This document shows, one piece after another, positions 11,614 through 24,733 of a stretch of 64,000 bases of DNA; position 1 is the stretch's first letter, and every line of letters starts with the position of its first letter. The stretch is from the sequence record MT150133.1; one strand, 5' to 3'. The position numbers were made by a program, and so were the translations under genes. This DNA comes from Enterobacteria phage vB_EcoM_IME540. The notes under the pieces were generated by a model. That model saw nothing but the letters and a program-made list of their open reading frames with translations. It made no database searches and was not told the DNA's origin.

Positions 11614-11614
<1 letters not shown>
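11417..11614 (-). CDS. hypothetical protein
   Basis: ORF track. Confidence 0.35.
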
Positions 11615-12818
<1,204 letters not shown>

Positions 12819-13276: not shown

Positions 13277-13626
13277 TCTGTAATGCTCCTGAAGTCTTCT
13301 GTAAAGGAATCGAAGGACTTGTTGATTTGTTTTTCGACCAATCCTGGCTTACTTGCCACCACGTGCGCCTTCTTCGAATCTTTACGGAGCTTTTCATTTT
13401 CTACCTTAATTTTATCCATTCGGGCATTCATTTCAGTAGTACGGAATTCAATATCAGAGTATTGGCCACGTAGGTCCTCTACAGCTTCAGCGTTCTGTTT
13501 AGCCGTTTGCTGGGTAGTTTTCAGTTCTTCAGTAAGAGTATCAATACGGCTTGATTGATACGAAATAAAACCGTAAGCACCTACTGCAATGGCTCCAGCT
13601 AAAAGGTAAATACTTAATTTAGACAT
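13273..13626 (-). CDS. i-spanin (inner-membrane, Rz-like)
   Basis: N-terminal transmembrane segment (LSIYLLAGAIAVGAYGFI) followed by charged coiled-coil-like region; paired with downstream lipoprotein. Confidence 0.7.
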   Translation of the reverse strand: MSKLSIYLLAGAIAVGAYGFISYQSSRIDTLTEELKTTQQTAKQNAEAVEDLRGQYSDIEFRTTEMNARMDKIKVENEKLRKDSKKAHVVASKPGLVEKQINKSFDSFTEDFRSITE

Positions 13627-14114
13627 TTGGTAATAATCTCGATGATGTCATCACGTGACAGGGAATTAATAAGAACCGTTTTAGGATTTTCACACTGAAT
13701 TTTGTACGTTTCGAACATAAAACACAATTCTTCAGCGGTATGGTAAGGACTTGAAATGCCAAGGCGATTAAACTTGTCGCTTAATGGGTCACAAATCAAA
13801 TAGAAAGTGATGCCTGAGATTTTAACATTAGGTTGGCTAATATTAATGAATACCTCGGCATCGTACTTGGAAAGGTTATTTTGGAGAAACTCAACCATAG
13901 AGTTAACAGCTTCCGGCATGGCTTCACGCTTTTCTTCTGCATAACGGGTAGAGTATTCTTTTTGCTTGATTTTCTTTTTAGCATTTTTAGCTAAAGTAAC
14001 ACGAAGATCGGTCAGGTAACCTACTGCACGAGAACCTTTAAAAACTTGGATACCATCAGTAGAGTCACCAAAAGCTTTAACAACCATTTCGTTAGTAATC
14101 ATCTGCATATTCAT
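13614..14114 (-). CDS. hypothetical protein at the position of T4 alc
   Basis: 166 aa (T4 Alc is 167 aa) between spanins and RNA ligase 1; assignment by length and synteny only. Confidence 0.4.
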   Translation of the reverse strand: MNMQMITNEMVVKAFGDSTDGIQVFKGSRAVGYLTDLRVTLAKNAKKKIKQKEYSTRYAEEKREAMPEAVNSMVEFLQNNLSKYDAEVFINISQPNVKISGITFYLICDPLSDKFNRLGISSPYHTAEELCFMFETYKIQCENPKTVLINSLSRDDIIEIITKCLN

Positions 14115-14176: not shown

Positions 14177-15321
14177 TCTACCACAATTTCTTTCAAATAT
14201 TTTTCAGGGATTTTGGCCTTATGATTTTTCAAGAACACAGAGTTAATCTGGTCTACAACCGTATCATAATTAATACCGCCTACGTACGCCTGCATAAGAA
14301 TAGAGAACAAGCCTGGGAAGTCCTTAAGGATTAGCTGTCCAGTAACGGCGTAGTCTTTACGGTCGCGGCCCTTGAGTTGGGAATATGCTGCTTCCAACAA
14401 AGCCAATGATTGTTCTAAGTAATCTAAATGGATACGTTCGAAGGCATCGATTTTCTCAATAGCAAACGAATCTGTACTGAACAGACCACGGAGGTCATCG
14501 GTTCCACCTGCAACTACAACTTCAAATAAACGTTCGTTATTGTTAATGGAATCTTTGGTGTGATGCAGTGCACTGTACCAGGCGGTTTTGAGTTTAAAGA
14601 ACGTGCCGTCTTTCAGAACAAAGATGAAACCTTCAATACCCTCTTGTTTACGGATGTTTTCTACGAAATCGCCTTCAGTGAGGTCATAGCTTTCAACCAA
14701 ATGCTTACGCAGGGCCCCATCTTTAAACAGTTCAGCATACGGAATATACTCACCCGTTTCATTATTACGAACGTTCAACAGGATGAGGTTTGTTTCTTGG
14801 TAAGCCAGCACGATACGGTTGGTAGGTGCAACATATTCAAGGTTGCAGGTATACCCGGCTTTGGTGATTTCTTCTAGACGTGCGGCAAAAGCCTCGTTCT
14901 CAGGGCGACGAAGGAAACGTAAAGAATCATATACCATCGATGAATGGATAGAGCCTTTAGATTTAACAGAAAGATACTGTCGGTCCATAAAGGTAGAAAT
15001 CAGAGAACCATCTTCCTTAGCCATTACGAGGTCGATATTTTCTGGCGACAAATCCAGACCGATAGTCATAGGGTTTTCGTCGAGGTTAAAGAACTTTTGC
15101 ATAGGACGAGCAGCAATACGTACCGGACCGTTCTCGTCCATTTCAAACATAATGCCTCGGCACTCTAGTGCGCCGTCTTCCAACCAATCACTGTACGATG
15201 CATAGTTATAACTAAAGATGCGATAGTTGACTCCTAGCGCACTCTGAAAGTCTTTAAAGAAGAACTTAGATTTAGTCGAGTTTTTAACCAGGGCCATCAA
15301 GTTATCATATAATTCAATCAT
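14173..15321 (-). CDS. rnlA: RNA ligase 1 / tail-fibre attachment protein
   Basis: Strong resemblance to T4 gp63 (YRIFSYNYASYSDW...ECRGIMFE...KEDGSL...). Confidence 0.9.
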   Translation of the reverse strand: MIELYDNLMALVKNSTKSKFFFKDFQSALGVNYRIFSYNYASYSDWLEDGALECRGIMFEMDENGPVRIAARPMQKFFNLDENPMTIGLDLSPENIDLVMAKEDGSLISTFMDRQYLSVKSKGSIHSSMVYDSLRFLRRPENEAFAARLEEITKAGYTCNLEYVAPTNRIVLAYQETNLILLNVRNNETGEYIPYAELFKDGALRKHLVESYDLTEGDFVENIRKQEGIEGFIFVLKDGTFFKLKTAWYSALHHTKDSINNNERLFEVVVAGGTDDLRGLFSTDSFAIEKIDAFERIHLDYLEQSLALLEAAYSQLKGRDRKDYAVTGQLILKDFPGLFSILMQAYVGGINYDTVVDQINSVFLKNHKAKIPEKYLKEIVVE

Positions 15322-15968
15322 TACTTTACCTTAAAATTTTCAACCATTTGATAATAGGATACATCAGGATAATTTAAAGCTACCATCTTGCGTTTAAAGG
15401 TTCTATGACCGCATCGGCCCATTTTAACCCAATGTTCGAAAAGCTCCTTTTCGTAAAGCCAATGTTCCTTACGCTTGGAAGAAGGAACTCCTAGGGTTTT
15501 GGTATTAGAATTTGCTTTTAATCCTGAATTTTTTTCAAAGGCCGCTATAAGGCCTCCGTAATGCTCATTAGGATATCCTAATGAAACCGCCAAGCGCCCA
15601 AATCTTCCGTATCCTAATAGACCGTTATTTACCCATAATTCAAAAAGCTCATCATAAAAATACCATTGTGATAATTTATCACCAGTTTTATGACCCCTGC
15701 CTCCAAGAACAACATTTAAACAATATGGGTCCATTAAGGCCTCATAACATACCAATTCCTTTTCTTTATCATAAGCTTCCTGTTCATCTGAATGAAATGA
15801 TAAAATTTCCTTAATAAATCTAAAATTTCTTTTTATATAGGGTAGTTTTACACCACTACCACTATAAATGTCATTTTCAGGGTCCTCGTTAGACCTTTTA
15901 CCTATATAATAGTGGTCTTTAAATGGGCCTTCCATAACTGTAATTTTGTATATGTAATGTTTCTTCAT
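15321..15968 (-). CDS. GIY-YIG homing endonuclease-like protein (Seg-like)
   Basis: N-terminal YIYKIT...YYIGKRS GIY-YIG motifs; start ATG overlaps denA stop in an ATGA arrangement. Confidence 0.65.
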   Translation of the reverse strand: MKKHYIYKITVMEGPFKDHYYIGKRSNEDPENDIYSGSGVKLPYIKRNFRFIKEILSFHSDEQEAYDKEKELVCYEALMDPYCLNVVLGGRGHKTGDKLSQWYFYDELFELWVNNGLLGYGRFGRLAVSLGYPNEHYGGLIAAFEKNSGLKANSNTKTLGVPSSKRKEHWLYEKELFEHWVKMGRCGHRTFKRKMVALNYPDVSYYQMVENFKVK

Positions 15969-16375
15969 TTGGCACGGTGTTGGGTATTCCAAGGTGGATT
16001 AAATTTCTTTATGAACATTGGCTCTTCAAGAGACATGGTCTCAACTGACATAGTTCCAAGTTCGTTAGTCATCGACAGATTAAAGCACTGCCGTGCATAG
16101 AACTCTACCTTTTTACCAGCCATTAATGCTTCATGAATCAGAATGGACTTAGTCGAATCTGACGTTTGGTCCTTACGATTAATAGCGGTTCGGTAGTAGT
16201 TGATGCGCTTACGAAGATTTTTAGTCTTCCCGACGTAGACTAGTATATCATCAACCGCTATAGCATATATGACATTTTGTTTATTTGGTACTGTGAGTGG
16301 AGCTATGGTGGCGTCATCTTGGAGTTCTAGGGTGACGTACTTGATAAAGCTAAATTCGTCTGCGATTTCTTTCAT
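15965..16375 (-). CDS. denA: endonuclease II (GIY-YIG family)
   Basis: Resembles T4 DenA (VIYAIA...YVGKTKNLRKRINYYRTAINRKD...); start set at MKEIADE Met. Confidence 0.85.
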   Translation of the reverse strand: MKEIADEFSFIKYVTLELQDDATIAPLTVPNKQNVIYAIAVDDILVYVGKTKNLRKRINYYRTAINRKDQTSDSTKSILIHEALMAGKKVEFYARQCFNLSMTNELGTMSVETMSLEEPMFIKKFNPPWNTQHRAK

Positions 16376-16383
16376 AGCAATAA

Positions 16384-16397
16384 GGGGCCGAAGCCCC
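16384..16397 (-). promoter_or_regulatory. UUCG tetraloop hairpin between nrdB and denA
   Basis: GGGGC-UUCG-GCCCC; no U tract. Confidence 0.45.
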
Positions 16398-16402
16398 ATT
16401 CC

Positions 16403-17581
16403 TTAAAAATATTTCTTGTACGATGCCATTACTTTTTCATCAACATCGTTATCAATTTGTGCTACAAGGTAAGAACTGATTTCCACTTCCTGAGGAGCAG
16501 CCTGTACAGCATCAGAGTTCAGGTATTCACGAATCCAAGGATAAGGATGGCGAGTAGGGGCATCAGTAATAGGACATGGTAAGCCACATTGCTTCATACG
16601 AGAAACTGTCAGGTAATCGACAAAAGCACCCATGTTCTGAGTATTTAATCCAGGGCAAGTGCCATCTTTGAACAGGTGAGCGGCCCATTCTTTTTCTTGA
16701 CGGTTAACTTCCATGAAAATATCAACCGCTTCTTGTTCACACTCTTGAGCAATTTTAACCCATTCGTCGCCATCAGTACCAAGCTGAAGTTGACGAATAA
16801 TGTACTGGGTGCCTTTAAGGTGGAGCTGTTCATCACGTGCAATAAACTTCATAATCTTAGCATTACCTTCCATGATTTCCATATTTTTGTGGAAGTTAAA
16901 GGTACATGCAAAAGATACATAAAAACGAATAGCTTCCAATGCGTTGATTACATGGAGGCAGAGGTAAAGAGAACGCATTAGTTCACGTTTCCAATAAATC
17001 TCATGCTCTATGACATCTTCAATATCATCTTCGTCTGCGTTAATTTCTTTTTGGTACTCAATATCAGCTTTAGCATTCTGCCAATATCTAGTTTTCTTTA
17101 AAACATCGTCATAATAACGGCCAATAGATTCAGCACGTTTCATGATGGCATCATCTAACAGAATTTCATCAAATACCTTAGATGGGTCTGTATAGAGGTT
17201 ACGCATGATATGGGTATATGAACGAGAGTGAATAGTTTCACTAAAGGTCCATGTTGCCACCCAAGTATCAAGGCTAGGGTCTGAAATCAAGGCTTGGAGT
17301 GCAGCAGAAGGAGCCCGTCCTTGGATACTATCCAGAAGTGATTGATACTTCAGGTTATTGGTAAAAATATTTTGTTGGAACTGTGGAAGCTTATTAAATT
17401 GAGCAGCATCCATCATCAAGTTGACTTCTTCTGGGCGCCAGAAAAAACTCAACTGCTTTTCACAAAGCTCTTCGAATACTTTATGACGTTGGATATCGTA
17501 ACGGGCAATACCCAATCCTGAACCAAAGAACATCGGTTCGACTAAAACATCAACTGGGGTGGTATTAAAAACTGTAGACAT
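16403..17581 (-). CDS. nrdB: ribonucleotide reductase small subunit
   Basis: Near-colinear with T4 NrdB; single uninterrupted ORF; start set at MSTVFN. Confidence 0.9.
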   Translation of the reverse strand: MSTVFNTTPVDVLVEPMFFGSGLGIARYDIQRHKVFEELCEKQLSFFWRPEEVNLMMDAAQFNKLPQFQQNIFTNNLKYQSLLDSIQGRAPSAALQALISDPSLDTWVATWTFSETIHSRSYTHIMRNLYTDPSKVFDEILLDDAIMKRAESIGRYYDDVLKKTRYWQNAKADIEYQKEINADEDDIEDVIEHEIYWKRELMRSLYLCLHVINALEAIRFYVSFACTFNFHKNMEIMEGNAKIMKFIARDEQLHLKGTQYIIRQLQLGTDGDEWVKIAQECEQEAVDIFMEVNRQEKEWAAHLFKDGTCPGLNTQNMGAFVDYLTVSRMKQCGLPCPITDAPTRHPYPWIREYLNSDAVQAAPQEVEISSYLVAQIDNDVDEKVMASYKKYF

Positions 17582-17634
17582 ATTATTCTCATTTGTTAGT
17601 GACTCATCCATGAGTCAATTATAATCAGATTTTA

Positions 17635-19890
17635 TTAAAGCTTACATGCTGCACAATCGTCGGCTTTAGGAGTTTCGATTTCGTAGTCATCAGTACCAGA
17701 GCCATCTCGGGTATTATGATAGTAAAGGTTCTTACCGCCGTAGTACCAGAAATACAGCAGGTCATCAAGCATTACCGACATCGGAACTTTTCCTTTTGGG
17801 AAAATCTGTGGGTCGTAATATGTATTCGCTGATGCTGATTGACACACCCATTTCAACGCTATTGCCACTTGGGTAAGATAAGGTTTATTACCTTTCTTAG
17901 CAAGGGTCCAAGCGTAATCGTAGAGTCCTTGGTTATGTTCTACATTAGGAACTACCTGACGGAAGTTACCTTCTTTAGATTCTTTAATACTTACCGGACC
18001 ACGTGGAGGTTCGATACCGTTTGTAGAGTTGGAAACCTGGCTGCTTGATTCACACGGCATAAGTGCTGATAATGTGCTATTACGGATGCCATGTTTAGCC
18101 AAGTCTTCCCGCAACGACGCCCAGTCACAAACATAGTTAGGGGCTGCGATTTGGTCAATCTTTTTATTGTACCAGTCGATAGGTAATTCGCCTCGAGACC
18201 ATTTAGTGTCTGAATAATACTCGCAAGGTCCTTTTTCTTCGGCCAACCTGATTGATGCTCGGATAAGTCCATATTGTAATCTCTCAAACAGTTCATGAGT
18301 TAAATCGTTTGCGTCTTCATAAGAAGCAAAGTTGCTTGCTAACCAAGCGGCATAGTTCGTAACACCAACACCCAGGTTGCGACGTTTCTTGGCCTTCAGA
18401 GCTTCAGGAACAGGATAATCTTGATAGTCCAACAGGTTATCAAGTGCACGTACTTGTACTTCAGCCAGCTCGTTGATTTTGTCTTGGTCCTGCCAATCGA
18501 AGTTATCCAATACGAATGCAGACAACGTACACAAACCAATTTCAGCGTCAGGACTATTCACGTCAGTAGTCGGGATAGCAATTTCACAACACAAGTTGCT
18601 CTGACGAATAGGAGCTTTTTCACGAATAAATGGTGTGAAGTTGTTAGTGTTATCAACGAACTGAGGATAAATTCGTGCAGTGCCTGAACGTTCAGTCATG
18701 AACAATTCGAAAAGGTCGCGTGCCTTAATACGTTTCTTACGAATACTAGGGTCTTTTTCTGCGGCTTCATACAATTCACGGAAACGGTCTTGGTCTTCGA
18801 AATAAGAATAGTAAAGCTCACCACCCATTTCATGAGGACTAAACAACGTGATGTAATCATTTTTACCGAAACGTTCCATCATAAGGTCGTTCATCTGGAT
18901 TCCGTAGTCCATATGGCGAATACGGTTCTCATCGACACCTTTGTTGTTTTTCAGAACGAGCAGATTTTCAACTTCCAAATGCCAAATAGGATAATAAGCA
19001 GTAGCAGCGCCGCCACGGATTCCACCTTGTGAACATGATTTAACAGCAGTCTGGAAATGTTTCCAGAATGGAATAACACCGGTATGCTTGACTTCGCCCA
19101 TGCCAATACGAGAACCTTCAGCACGAATCATACCAACGTTGATACCAATACCGGCACGTTTAGAAATGTATTCAATTATTGAGTTAGCAGTTTTGTTAAT
19201 AGATTTCAGTGAGTCGCCTGCTTCAATAACCACACAAGAACTAAATTGACGGGTTGGTGTACGTGCTCCAGCCATAATAGGAGTTGGTAATGAAACCTGA
19301 CGGGTACTTACAGCATCATAAAAACGAATAATATGTGCTAAACGATTACCTGGCTCGTCTTGGTGTAAGGCCATACCAATACACATGATAGCGAACTGAG
19401 GGGTTTCGTAGATTTTACCGGTTGTTTTATCTTTAACCAGATATTTCTCTTTAAGCTGCATCGCACCAGCATAAGTCAATTCGAAATCGCGTTCATGCTT
19501 TATATGAGATTCTAAGAAAGTAATTTCTTCTGCAGAATATCGAGACAACAATTCAGGGTCATATTTACCTTCGTTAACACAATAGGAAATATGGTCGATA
19601 AAGCTACGTGGTTCGAACTGCCCATAAACTTCTTTACGCAGTGCAAACATCAATTCTTTTGCAGCAACATATTGGTAATCAGGCTCTTCAACCGAGATAA
19701 GGTTGGCTGCTACCTTAACAGTCAGATTTTGGATATCTTTGGTAGTCATACCGTCACGAAGATGGGATTTGATTTCTTCGTATAATTCATAGGGGTCGAT
19801 TTGGGTTCCTTCACAGCCCCAAGTCAGAACTTTAATAATTTTTTGTGCGTCAAAATCTTGGGATACACCACTACTTTTTTGTACTTGCAT
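17635..19890 (-). CDS. nrdA: ribonucleotide reductase large subunit
   Basis: 751 aa, near-colinear with T4 NrdA. Confidence 0.93.
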   Translation of the reverse strand: MQVQKSSGVSQDFDAQKIIKVLTWGCEGTQIDPYELYEEIKSHLRDGMTTKDIQNLTVKVAANLISVEEPDYQYVAAKELMFALRKEVYGQFEPRSFIDHISYCVNEGKYDPELLSRYSAEEITFLESHIKHERDFELTYAGAMQLKEKYLVKDKTTGKIYETPQFAIMCIGMALHQDEPGNRLAHIIRFYDAVSTRQVSLPTPIMAGARTPTRQFSSCVVIEAGDSLKSINKTANSIIEYISKRAGIGINVGMIRAEGSRIGMGEVKHTGVIPFWKHFQTAVKSCSQGGIRGGAATAYYPIWHLEVENLLVLKNNKGVDENRIRHMDYGIQMNDLMMERFGKNDYITLFSPHEMGGELYYSYFEDQDRFRELYEAAEKDPSIRKKRIKARDLFELFMTERSGTARIYPQFVDNTNNFTPFIREKAPIRQSNLCCEIAIPTTDVNSPDAEIGLCTLSAFVLDNFDWQDQDKINELAEVQVRALDNLLDYQDYPVPEALKAKKRRNLGVGVTNYAAWLASNFASYEDANDLTHELFERLQYGLIRASIRLAEEKGPCEYYSDTKWSRGELPIDWYNKKIDQIAAPNYVCDWASLREDLAKHGIRNSTLSALMPCESSSQVSNSTNGIEPPRGPVSIKESKEGNFRQVVPNVEHNQGLYDYAWTLAKKGNKPYLTQVAIALKWVCQSASANTYYDPQIFPKGKVPMSVMLDDLLYFWYYGGKNLYYHNTRDGSGTDDYEIETPKADDCAACKL

Positions 19891-23105: not shown

Positions 23106-24011
23106 TTATAGACCAGCTAACAGGTCGTCCAGACCATCGTCATCAGAAGGACTTACTGACGGCTCAGGAGTAGTGGAACGAGTCGGTGTAGATGGTTTAG
23201 AATCATATGCATCAAGGTCTGCACTGAATGCGTCCAGGTCATCACCAATCTTATCAGCGGCTGCAGAAGCTTTAGCGGCAGCACCACCAAGAGCAGCTGT
23301 ACCAACAACTTTCTTAAACTTGGCTTCGTTAGTTTCGAATGATTTGAAATCGAGCAGTTTAGAAAGGTCGTGCATTTCTTCCATCAATTTAGCTTGGTAA
23401 GCTTCATCATTGATGTTAGGAATTTCAGACTGACCCATGAATTTGGAATCGTCGTAGTTCTTGAAGTCGCCAACTTTCTTAGATTTCAGTACGAAGTTCG
23501 CACCATCAAACGGACATGTTACGTCAACCGGCACTTCACCAATATCAGTATCAACTTCAACCATCTGGTTGATTTTATCCATAATTTTCTGACCGAAACG
23601 GAATTTAAACACTTTACCTTCGTTAGCAGGTACTGCACTATCCTTAATAACAAGGATGTTAGCCCAGAAGGAAGTTTTACGTTTCATCAGTTTGTATTCG
23701 GCATTATTAGTATTAAAGGTATCATTCTGGTTCATGTATTTACATACAGGACATGAATCGAAATCACCATGAGTAGACGTACATGATTCGATATACCACT
23801 GACCATTTTTCTTAAAACCATGGTTAACAAGCTTAACGAATGGGGATGGATTAGCTTCGTTTTTCGAAGGAAGGAATCGAATAACTGCGGTTCCTACGCC
23901 ATTGTCATCTTTCAATTTCCATTCGGATTTGTCATCAGACGAGAAAGAAGAGCCACCTTTCATTGCAGACAGTTGAGCAGCAAGTTCAGCAGGATTACGG
24001 CGTTTAAACAT
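23106..24011 (-). CDS. 32: single-stranded DNA-binding protein
   Basis: Near-colinear with T4 gp32 (MFKRR...AVIRFLPSK...acidic C-terminus); start at MFKRR. Confidence 0.92.
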
Positions 24012-24060
24012 AGACATATTATTTACCTTATTTGATATATTTAATAAATTTATTAACAGT
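24012..24060 (-). promoter_or_regulatory. gene 32 5' leader, candidate autoregulatory translational operator
   Basis: A/U-rich unstructured leader (TTAATAAATTTATTAAATATATCAAATAAGGTAAATAAT before ATG) like the T4 gene 32 operator. Confidence 0.4.
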
Positions 24061-24115
24061 TGTTGTTATCACGTTTACCTTGATAACTAGGTTTTGAAGA
24101 TGAAGTAATTATATA

Positions 24116-24733
24116 TCACTTCGAATAAAGCATTTTTAACTTAATGAATTCAGGGTCATCATTAGGAACCCAACCCTCATTAAATTGTTTAATCATACTC
24201 TTTGATGTAGTTTCACTAACATTTATACCAGAGTTAATGAGACGCCTCCATCCACAAGCTCTTCCACTAGAATTAATTATACAATAATTAGTATAAGCAA
24301 TATCACTAAGCATCCAATCTAAAGGGTTTGCTCTAGAAGTTTTCCAAGGACGGTAATCGGGTTGATTCATATAGTTAGCAGCTTTCATATGGGCTCTAAC
24401 TTCAGGACGTTTGGCTGGGTGAGTGCATCCAAAGACTCCAAATCCGCCACCGGCATAAACCAAATTAAAATAATCATCATTATCTCTAGCTTGAACTTCC
24501 AATTGTTCTGAACGTTCAATATTAATAACAATATCAAATGGCGTTATAGCCAAAATTTCAACAATAGGTTTTTCTTCTTCGATGGCCTCTTTAAATCTTG
24601 ATTGCTCGCAAGAGGTCCAATACTCTTTACCTTTACAGTCAATAATCACGCCATTTTCAAAAGTACAATTAGTTTTAGAACCTATGTACGAAAACGGCTT
24701 AATATTATTAGCCTGACGATTAAGCCAAGTCAT
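24116..24733 (-). CDS. unassigned protein between genes 59 and 32
   Basis: ORF track 24116..24760 (track start is TTG); first ATG at 24733; no Shine-Dalgarno seen; no family recognised by eye. Confidence 0.5.
   Translation of the reverse strand: MTWLNRQANNIKPFSYIGSKTNCTFENGVIIDCKGKEYWTSCEQSRFKEAIEEEKPIVEILAITPFDIVINIERSEQLEVQARDNDDYFNLVYAGGGFGVFGCTHPAKRPEVRAHMKAANYMNQPDYRPWKTSRANPLDWMLSDIAYTNYCIINSSGRACGWRRLINSGINVSETTSKSMIKQFNEGWVPNDDPEFIKLKMLYSK

Follow-up and report, generated by a model that had tools for sequence, protein, structure and literature searches.

We report that the open reading frame (ORF) at 15321-15968 on the minus strand of a stretch from Enterobacteria phage vB_EcoM_IME540 (MT150133.1), called ORF X here, is probably an intact, free-standing gene for a homing endonuclease of the 'Seg' type known from T-even phages, whose product would cut DNA and promote the copying of its own gene into related phages. 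The stretch, referred to throughout as the window, comprises 64,000 nucleotides (nt) of T-even-type coliphage DNA belonging to the genus Dhakavirus, and ORF X lies in it between denA (endonuclease II) and rnlA (RNA ligase 1). The protein that it encodes has the same sequence as QJA42490.1, which is recorded for phage vB_EcoM_IME540 as a 'hypothetical protein'. The initial annotation had described a Seg-like endonuclease with clear GIY-YIG motifs, placed between these two genes and beginning in an ATGA overlap with the denA stop codon, and our results bear out each of these points. ORF X and its predicted parts are as follows (aa, amino acids; HTH, helix-turn-helix).

15321-15968, minus strand: ORF X, free-standing Seg-type GIY-YIG gene, 215 aa plus stop codon
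15693-15968, minus strand: N-terminal GIY-YIG catalytic domain, about aa 1-92
15525-15671, minus strand: C-terminal module copy 1, about aa 100-148, a three-helix HTH-like bundle
15324-15467, minus strand: C-terminal module copy 2, about aa 168-215, 38% identical to copy 1 (E 3e-10)

The N-terminal domain holds the residues characteristic of GIY-YIG nucleases, namely Y7 (of GIY), Y21 and G23 (of YIG), Y35-x-G37-S38-G39, E69 and N85, with YIYKIT at residues 5-10 and YYIGK at residues 20-24. The family's Tyr, Tyr/Gly, Glu and C-terminal Asn are all present, and in alignment E69 falls on E75, the catalytic Glu of I-TevI. Among the 12-17 relatives over which motif conservation was judged, Y7, G23, Y35, G37, S38, G39, E69 and N85 are invariant, and Y21 and K24 are nearly so. 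Profile searches also revealed nuclease-family similarity, with matches to PHROG 314 'homing endonuclease' over residues 1-99 (4.4e-16) and to the PADLOC HEase model over residues 3-94 (1e-15). A defence-system nuclease identity was considered and set aside, the 'HEase' models being the only ones of PADLOC that match. The AlphaFold (AF2) model (pLDDT 80.5) places two three-helix bundles after an N-terminal domain of beta-beta-alpha-beta-alpha topology; it has the three-stranded antiparallel sheet with flanking helices of the GIY-YIG superfamily, and its fold-comparison matches include a GIY-YIG restriction enzyme, the UvrC N-terminal domain, T4 endonuclease II, an SLX1 homologue and R.Eco29kI. 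Assignment of ORF X as a Seg-type GIY-YIG nuclease is thus supported by both family and fold.

Comparison with the T4 Seg proteins (taken from NC_000866 and compared by BLASTP) places ORF X within this group, both by its relationship to SegA-G and by its two-domain layout. The nuclease domain is 39% identical to that of SegD over 98 aa, 36% to that of SegB over 92 aa, 34% to that of SegC and 30% to that of SegE, while SegF is 27% identical over 191 aa. Experiments have shown SegB to be a homing endonuclease (PMC2330249). SegB, SegC, SegD and SegE differ from ORF X in having unrelated C-terminal DNA-binding regions (NUMOD3 or other HTH) and other insertion sites. SegA, by contrast, is collinear with ORF X over its full length (residues 1-213 against 1-215, 27% identity), and it too is free-standing, with tightly packed neighbours in the same orientation. 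Both proteins end in the same 45-aa three-helix module, although SegA has NUMOD3 repeats between its nuclease domain and a single module, whereas ORF X has two modules in tandem. The T4 SegA gene is located between uvsX and beta-gt, and the enzyme cuts in uvsX; the target of ORF X is presumably different, since its genomic site differs. Outside the ORF X cluster, the nearest relatives over the full length (26% over aa 1-212) are 'SegE-like' neighbours of tk in Citrobacter phage Moon, the Klebsiella Roth series and pKp20, which resemble ORF X in combining GIY-YIG with the C-terminal module and in having a 3′ end that overlaps the start of the downstream gene, but which differ in their NUMOD3 repeats, their single module and their locus upstream of tk. 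I-TevI differs in being encoded within an intron of T4 td and in binding DNA through a zinc finger, a minor-groove helix and an HTH.

Pfam has no model for the C-terminal module (motif HW-YYDELY-LW--NGKP----F+KIAV--GYPD--Y--MV--F), and a word-indexed protein search with the C-terminal half of ORF X found nothing; when 1.8 billion representatives were searched exhaustively with HMMER, the module turned up in 28 cluster representatives only. The module occurs in one to three copies per protein, nearly always at the C-terminus, and the N-termini of the proteins that bear it are GIY-YIG (Seg-like or SegF-like) or HNH, often with intervening NUMOD3 repeats. T4 SegA holds one copy at aa 171-215 (hidden Markov model E 5e-14; the SegA gene is at 23570-24235 of the T4 stretch compared), and the 'SegE-like' endonuclease by tk in Citrobacter phage Moon also holds one (E 1e-16). 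By eye, the C-terminus of T4 SegF looks like a divergent copy, but it failed to score as one. Both modules of ORF X are confidently modelled as three-helix bundles resembling HTH DNA-binding domains, and this predicted fold, together with the domain context, suggests that the tandem modules form the DNA-binding region. In a published classification, 'orthodox' GIY-YIG homing endonucleases are those with C-terminal NUMOD1, NUMOD3 or NUMOD4 modules (PMC1564403). ORF X falls outside this class, as no NUMOD family matched it at E <= 1 in Pfam (NUMOD2 has no Pfam model), whereas SegA, SegD, the Moon homing endonuclease and several other module-bearing relatives have NUMOD3.

Alignment of the locus with relatives that lack the ORF, which the initial annotation had proposed as a check, revealed a 644-nt insertion between denA and rnlA. 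Most relatives match the locus in two pieces (78% coverage), and the insert boundaries are ambiguous by a few bases. The features at the junctions, all on the minus strand, are listed below; the two tails were identified by comparison with empty-site phages.

15965-16375/16399, minus strand: denA (endonuclease II), upstream of ORF X; PHROG 1111 'endonuclease' 1e-63, Pfam GIY-YIG 7.9e-5
15965-15979, minus strand: new recoded denA 3′ tail, CAC CGT GCC AAA TGA (HRAK and stop)
15334-15977, minus strand: 644-nt segment missing from Dhakavirus phages without ORF X (MAFFT gap against IME08)
15319-15333, minus strand: former denA tail, now the last ORF X codons AAG GTA AAG TAA
14173-15321, minus strand: rnlA (RNA ligase 1), downstream of ORF X; Pfam T4_Rnl1_C 1.4e-45

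In the empty junction, here called type A and given in gene sense, the sequence reads …ACCCAACA TAGGATAAAGCAATGATT…, DenA ends in HRIKQ and stop, and the denA TGA is fused to the rnlA ATG. In carriers of ORF X the junction reads …ACCCAACA CCGTGCCAAATGAAG…[ORF X]…TTTTAAGGTAAAG(C/T)AATGATT…. The ORF X ATG (15968-15966) overlaps the denA TGA (15967-15965) to give ATGA at 15965-15968, and at the other end the ORF X TAA (15323-15321) and the rnlA ATG (15321-15319) have one base in common, giving TAATG at 15319-15323, an overlap that the initial annotation had not mentioned. The codon after K215 (window position 15323) is TAA here and CAA, followed by TGA, in IME281, 04086, 005 and a Logan contig; ORF X is therefore one residue shorter in the window, and its overlap with rnlA is TAATG rather than ATGA. 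Within ORF X, the former denA tail contains an AAGG remnant of the rnlA ribosome site along with this overlap. Because the insert brings a replacement end for denA and puts the old one, together with the rnlA ribosome site and the start overlap, to new use, we infer that both neighbours stay functional after this seamless insertion. In T4, denA and rnlA are separated by a 52-nt spacer and nothing else. The initial annotation had expected 'alc or nothing' at this position in T4; 'nothing' is right, while alc lies beyond rnlA.

Another form of the junction without an endonuclease gene, type B, reads …CAACACCGATTAAAAGGATAAAGCAATG and is 8 nt longer than type A; DenA ends in HRLKG and stop, 4 nt before the rnlA ATG, and CACCG is common to type B and the carrier allele. 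It is found in Bp7, AnYang (about 1821-1835 of the compared stretch), PSD2002, LQ5, MX01 and UGJNEcP3/4, and corresponds to the window junction 15333/15978. Type B could be what remains after the loss of an endonuclease gene, or a variant that resists cleavage.

ORF X is sporadic among close relatives. The 3-kb stretch around it is 96-97% identical to IME281, 04086, IME08 and IME341, and in 50 Dhakavirus records the denA/rnlA junction is type A in about 35, type B in 10 and split by the insert in five, which represent three phages when RefSeq duplicates are taken into account. The gene is consequently absent from about 90% of Dhakavirus records, as well as from T4, and is far from universally conserved at this position. 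In the phage collection searched, only IME281, 04086 and vB_EcoM_005 carry it (at least 99.5% aa identity), all other matches being below 60%; the ORF X cluster has 17 near-identical members, and IME08, IME341, UP19, dhaeg, ABTNLsp5, AnYang, Bp7 and T4 lack the gene. Scans of IMG/VR recovered only sequenced isolates and no further environmental context, and the exact window protein has no record there. The copies in IME281, 04086 and 005 are annotated as hypothetical, and UniRef calls that of IME281 a 'GIY-YIG domain-containing protein'. A sporadic free-standing ORF between conserved adjacent genes is what is expected of a Seg gene.

Comparison of five DNA copies (window, IME281, 04086, 005 and the Logan contig) showed 16 variable codons, 14 with synonymous and two with non-synonymous differences; ORF X is under purifying selection, and with this ratio it is therefore functional rather than decaying. 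The same comparison, together with the existence of homologues, shows that it is no chance frame. While the ORF X copies differ by 0.8-1.4%, divergence between the carriers is 7-9% in the 3′ part of rnlA, 0.5-1.1 kb away, and their nearest neighbours in this part and in denA are non-carriers, with no carrier clade in the flanks. Presence of the gene is therefore uncoupled from the genealogy of its flanks, which fits lateral spread. Over about 2.5 kb, carriers and type-A non-carriers show no fixed difference other than the junction, and a search for any other fixed flank polymorphism that might mark a distant cleavage site found none in this interval. As the only fixed difference, and one disrupted in carriers, the junction is the most economical candidate for the recognition site, which on these sequence comparisons would lie where denA meets rnlA. 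The initial annotation had put the probable target in the corresponding region of relatives without the insert, a proposal that fits both the presence/absence polymorphism and the position of this single fixed difference.

A search with the empty site also revealed a 204-aa 'homing endonuclease' between denA and rnlA in Klebsiella phages of the genus Jiaodavirus, among them UTI-K1, Boboto, KEN37, 15882-6-2 and K65_evo4 (38 records at >=99% identity). The gene is at 1057-1671 of the compared stretches of UTI-K1 and Boboto, equivalent to about 15333/15978 in the window. Its product, with an HNH domain, NUMOD3 and a Cys-rich end, is MobE-like and has no significant BLASTP match to ORF X; it thus differs from ORF X in protein family as well as in the genus of the host. 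Nonetheless, the two genes occupy the same nucleotide, immediately after the CAACAT/C His codon of the conserved PPWNTQH end of DenA. The empty Jiaodavirus site (Wolf_ER13) reads …CAACATAAGGTAAAGAAATGTTAG, and in UTI-K1 the insert begins exactly after CAACAT, where the ATG of the endonuclease is fused to a new denA tail, …ACTAACAAAGCTAAATGA; the last codons of the endonuclease are those of the former tail (…CAT AAG GTA AAG AAA TGT TAG), which overlaps the rnlA ATG. Both cases therefore have an ATGA fusion, a replacement denA tail that ends in A-K-stop, and reuse of the old denA tail (KVK...) and of the overlap with the rnlA start. At its 3′ junction ORF X (AAGGTAAAG) agrees with the Jiaodavirus tail rather than with the Dhakavirus AGGATAAAG, a possible hint at the origin of the cassette in a stretch too short to decide the matter.

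These observations led us to a broader proposal, which we consider evenly balanced between right and wrong: that the end of denA is a landing site common to GIY-YIG cassettes in Dhakavirus and HNH cassettes in Jiaodavirus, each bringing a replacement denA tail, and that the 45-aa unit is an uncurated DNA-binding module shuffled between GIY-YIG and HNH enzymes. If this is true, either the two families converged independently on the sequence coding for PPWNTQH, or one cassette took the place of another. Replacement of endonucleases at a single locus reportedly has precedents in T4-related phages, in work on SegH and Hef.

All genes of the region are on the minus strand, and those beyond the immediate neighbours of ORF X are as follows.

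17635-19890, minus strand: nrdA
16403-17611, minus strand: nrdB
13614-14114, minus strand: alc
11614-12522, minus strand: pseT

For ORF X itself, the ATG is taken as the start because its homologues all begin with M-x-x-HYIYKIT; a TTG at 15992 (24 nt upstream, 223 aa) was discarded on the same grounds. The start of denA is likely the ATG at 16375 (136 aa, as in the IME281 annotation), while its longest ORF opens at the ATG at 16399. We observed a perfect GGGGC-UUCG-GCCCC tetraloop hairpin (16384-16397, minus strand) after the nrdB stop codon (16403-16405) and before the probable start of denA, and the longest denA ORF would start within it; the fold of its 61-nt context is not unusual (z -1.2). 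In IME341, denA is annotated as 162 nt only (1819-1980 of the compared stretch) even though the DNA aligns over the full gene, which may be due to a frameshift, a sequencing error or an annotation artefact. The nrdB gene contains a hypervariable cassette (16985-17075, minus strand) with at least three haplotypes and a length difference of 39 nt (13 codons): one form is found in the window, IME281, AnYang, Bp7 and ABTNLsp5, a second in IME08, 04086, IME341 and dhaeg, and a third in UP19. The cassette is about 80-170 nt from the site (after window position 16905) of the Bp7 nrdB group I intron with I-TevIII.

Signals for independent expression of ORF X were not found. No Shine-Dalgarno-like sequence precedes its ATG (…AATACCCAACACCGTGCCAAATG), no T4 late promoter (TATAAATA) is present near it, and sigma-70-like sites numbered nine against 10.5 expected from shuffled sequence, so that ORF X differs from T4 SegA, which has promoter elements of its own (PMC2988022). 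A hairpin sequestering the start, as in segB and in I-TevI, where the ribosome-binding site is hidden, was looked for and rejected, the RNA being no more structured than shuffled sequence (z +1.25). Translational coupling to denA through the ATGA overlap is plausible. T4 mobE offers a parallel, with overlapping stop and start codons (UAAUGA, coupling it to nrdA) and no obvious initiation region, an arrangement proposed to limit endonuclease synthesis (PMC2988022); coupling is a proposal for both genes, which differ in family (mobE is HNH) and in locus.

Taken together, we propose that ORF X encodes an N-terminal GIY-YIG nuclease linked to a tandem pair of three-helix modules of the SegA type, which would bind DNA. 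The protein is probably produced in small amounts from the nrdA-nrdB-denA transcript and translated by termination-reinitiation at the denA ATGA overlap. In a mixed infection with a Dhakavirus without the gene, the enzyme would bind and cut at or near the intact denA/rnlA junction, while the carrier genome would be immune because 644 nt split its own junction. Recombinational repair from the carrier would then copy ORF X, with some flanking DNA, into the recipient.

Several results count against this interpretation and must be weighed with it. ORF X matched no Pfam model (PF01541 included) and no NCBIfam model at E <= 1; this does not refute family membership, since T4 SegF, a characterised GIY-YIG enzyme, has no Pfam match either (and SegD is below threshold). 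In sequence searches of the PDB, a single-sequence query returned noise only and the match of a profile to I-TevI was not significant (E 0.32), for which reason the family question was settled by fold comparison. No Arg of ORF X can be aligned by sequence with the catalytic R27 of I-TevI, the conserved Arg with which helix 1 begins in the superfamily; the ORF X subfamily, active T4 Seg enzymes included, has K24-(R/H)25 and Y35-x-GSG in place of an alignable Arg. Many T4 Seg enzymes cut hundreds of base pairs from their own genes, and the target need not coincide with the junction. The unassigned Arg counterpart and the lack of a Pfam match would also fit ORF X as a catalytically dead remnant, retained as a DNA-binding protein or because its deletion would harm denA and rnlA expression, and since the insert now holds the denA stop codon, the rnlA ribosome site and the overlap, imprecise loss would be harmful whether or not the enzyme is active. 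We nevertheless regard a dead remnant as highly improbable: structural retention would not keep the 14:2 ratio across the whole ORF, nuclease domain included, and the active T4 Seg proteins have the same Y-x-GSG variant.

The pattern of flank divergence bears on whether ORF X could be an accessory gene spread passively by general homologous recombination through its conserved flanks, and not by its own cleavage. The flanks within about 200-400 nt are only 0.5-3% divergent in all main-clade phages, carrier or not; we looked for a carrier-specific co-conversion tract and found that the low-divergence valley is common to non-carriers, with no gradient specific to carriers. Such a tract is not demonstrable here because the immediate flanks are conserved throughout the main clade, and general recombination among co-infecting phages could yield the same mosaic. 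Even so, every alignable catalytic residue and both modules are kept under purifying selection, and an unrelated homing endonuclease at the same nucleotide in another genus points to nuclease-driven targeting, leaving passive spread improbable. Somewhat less improbable, though still unlikely, is a domesticated nuclease, that is, an active Seg-type enzyme kept for the benefit of the phage and not for homing, whether through marker exclusion, recombination or amplification of nrd-denA-rnlA, or the countering of a host defence, any of which might apply. Selection on ORF X is stronger than a purely selfish element would need once locally fixed, and its 0.8-1.4% divergence shows that the invasion is not brand-new; moreover, a 2026 paper describes SegB as helping phage T6 to evade a defence by amplifying anti-defence loci (PMC13096335), a case that would lend this reading support. 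Presence in only about 10% of Dhakavirus records implies that no such benefit is general, however, and no known anti-defence locus was found in the neighbourhood. Domestication also overlaps with homing and is compatible with it.

As an intact homing endonuclease gene, ORF X extends the well-described phenomenon of selfish mobile genes and does not overturn current understanding. Our search of the literature found no paper that mentions ORF X or its insertion site; what is modestly new is the tandem arrangement of SegA-type modules without NUMODs and the insertion point in common with an HNH gene. In practical terms, a protein that is a 'hypothetical protein' in every GenBank and RefSeq carrier record can be annotated as a SegA-like homing endonuclease. 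Natural recipients exist in the type-A empty sites, in the type-B site (an 8-nt variant) and in a related genus with another endonuclease at the same nucleotide, and these could show how free-standing endonucleases choose and share sites without harming the flanking genes. For the engineering of GIY-YIG nucleases, where the I-TevI nuclease domain is already in use in chimeras, the tandem SegA-type module offers a compact candidate unit for DNA recognition.

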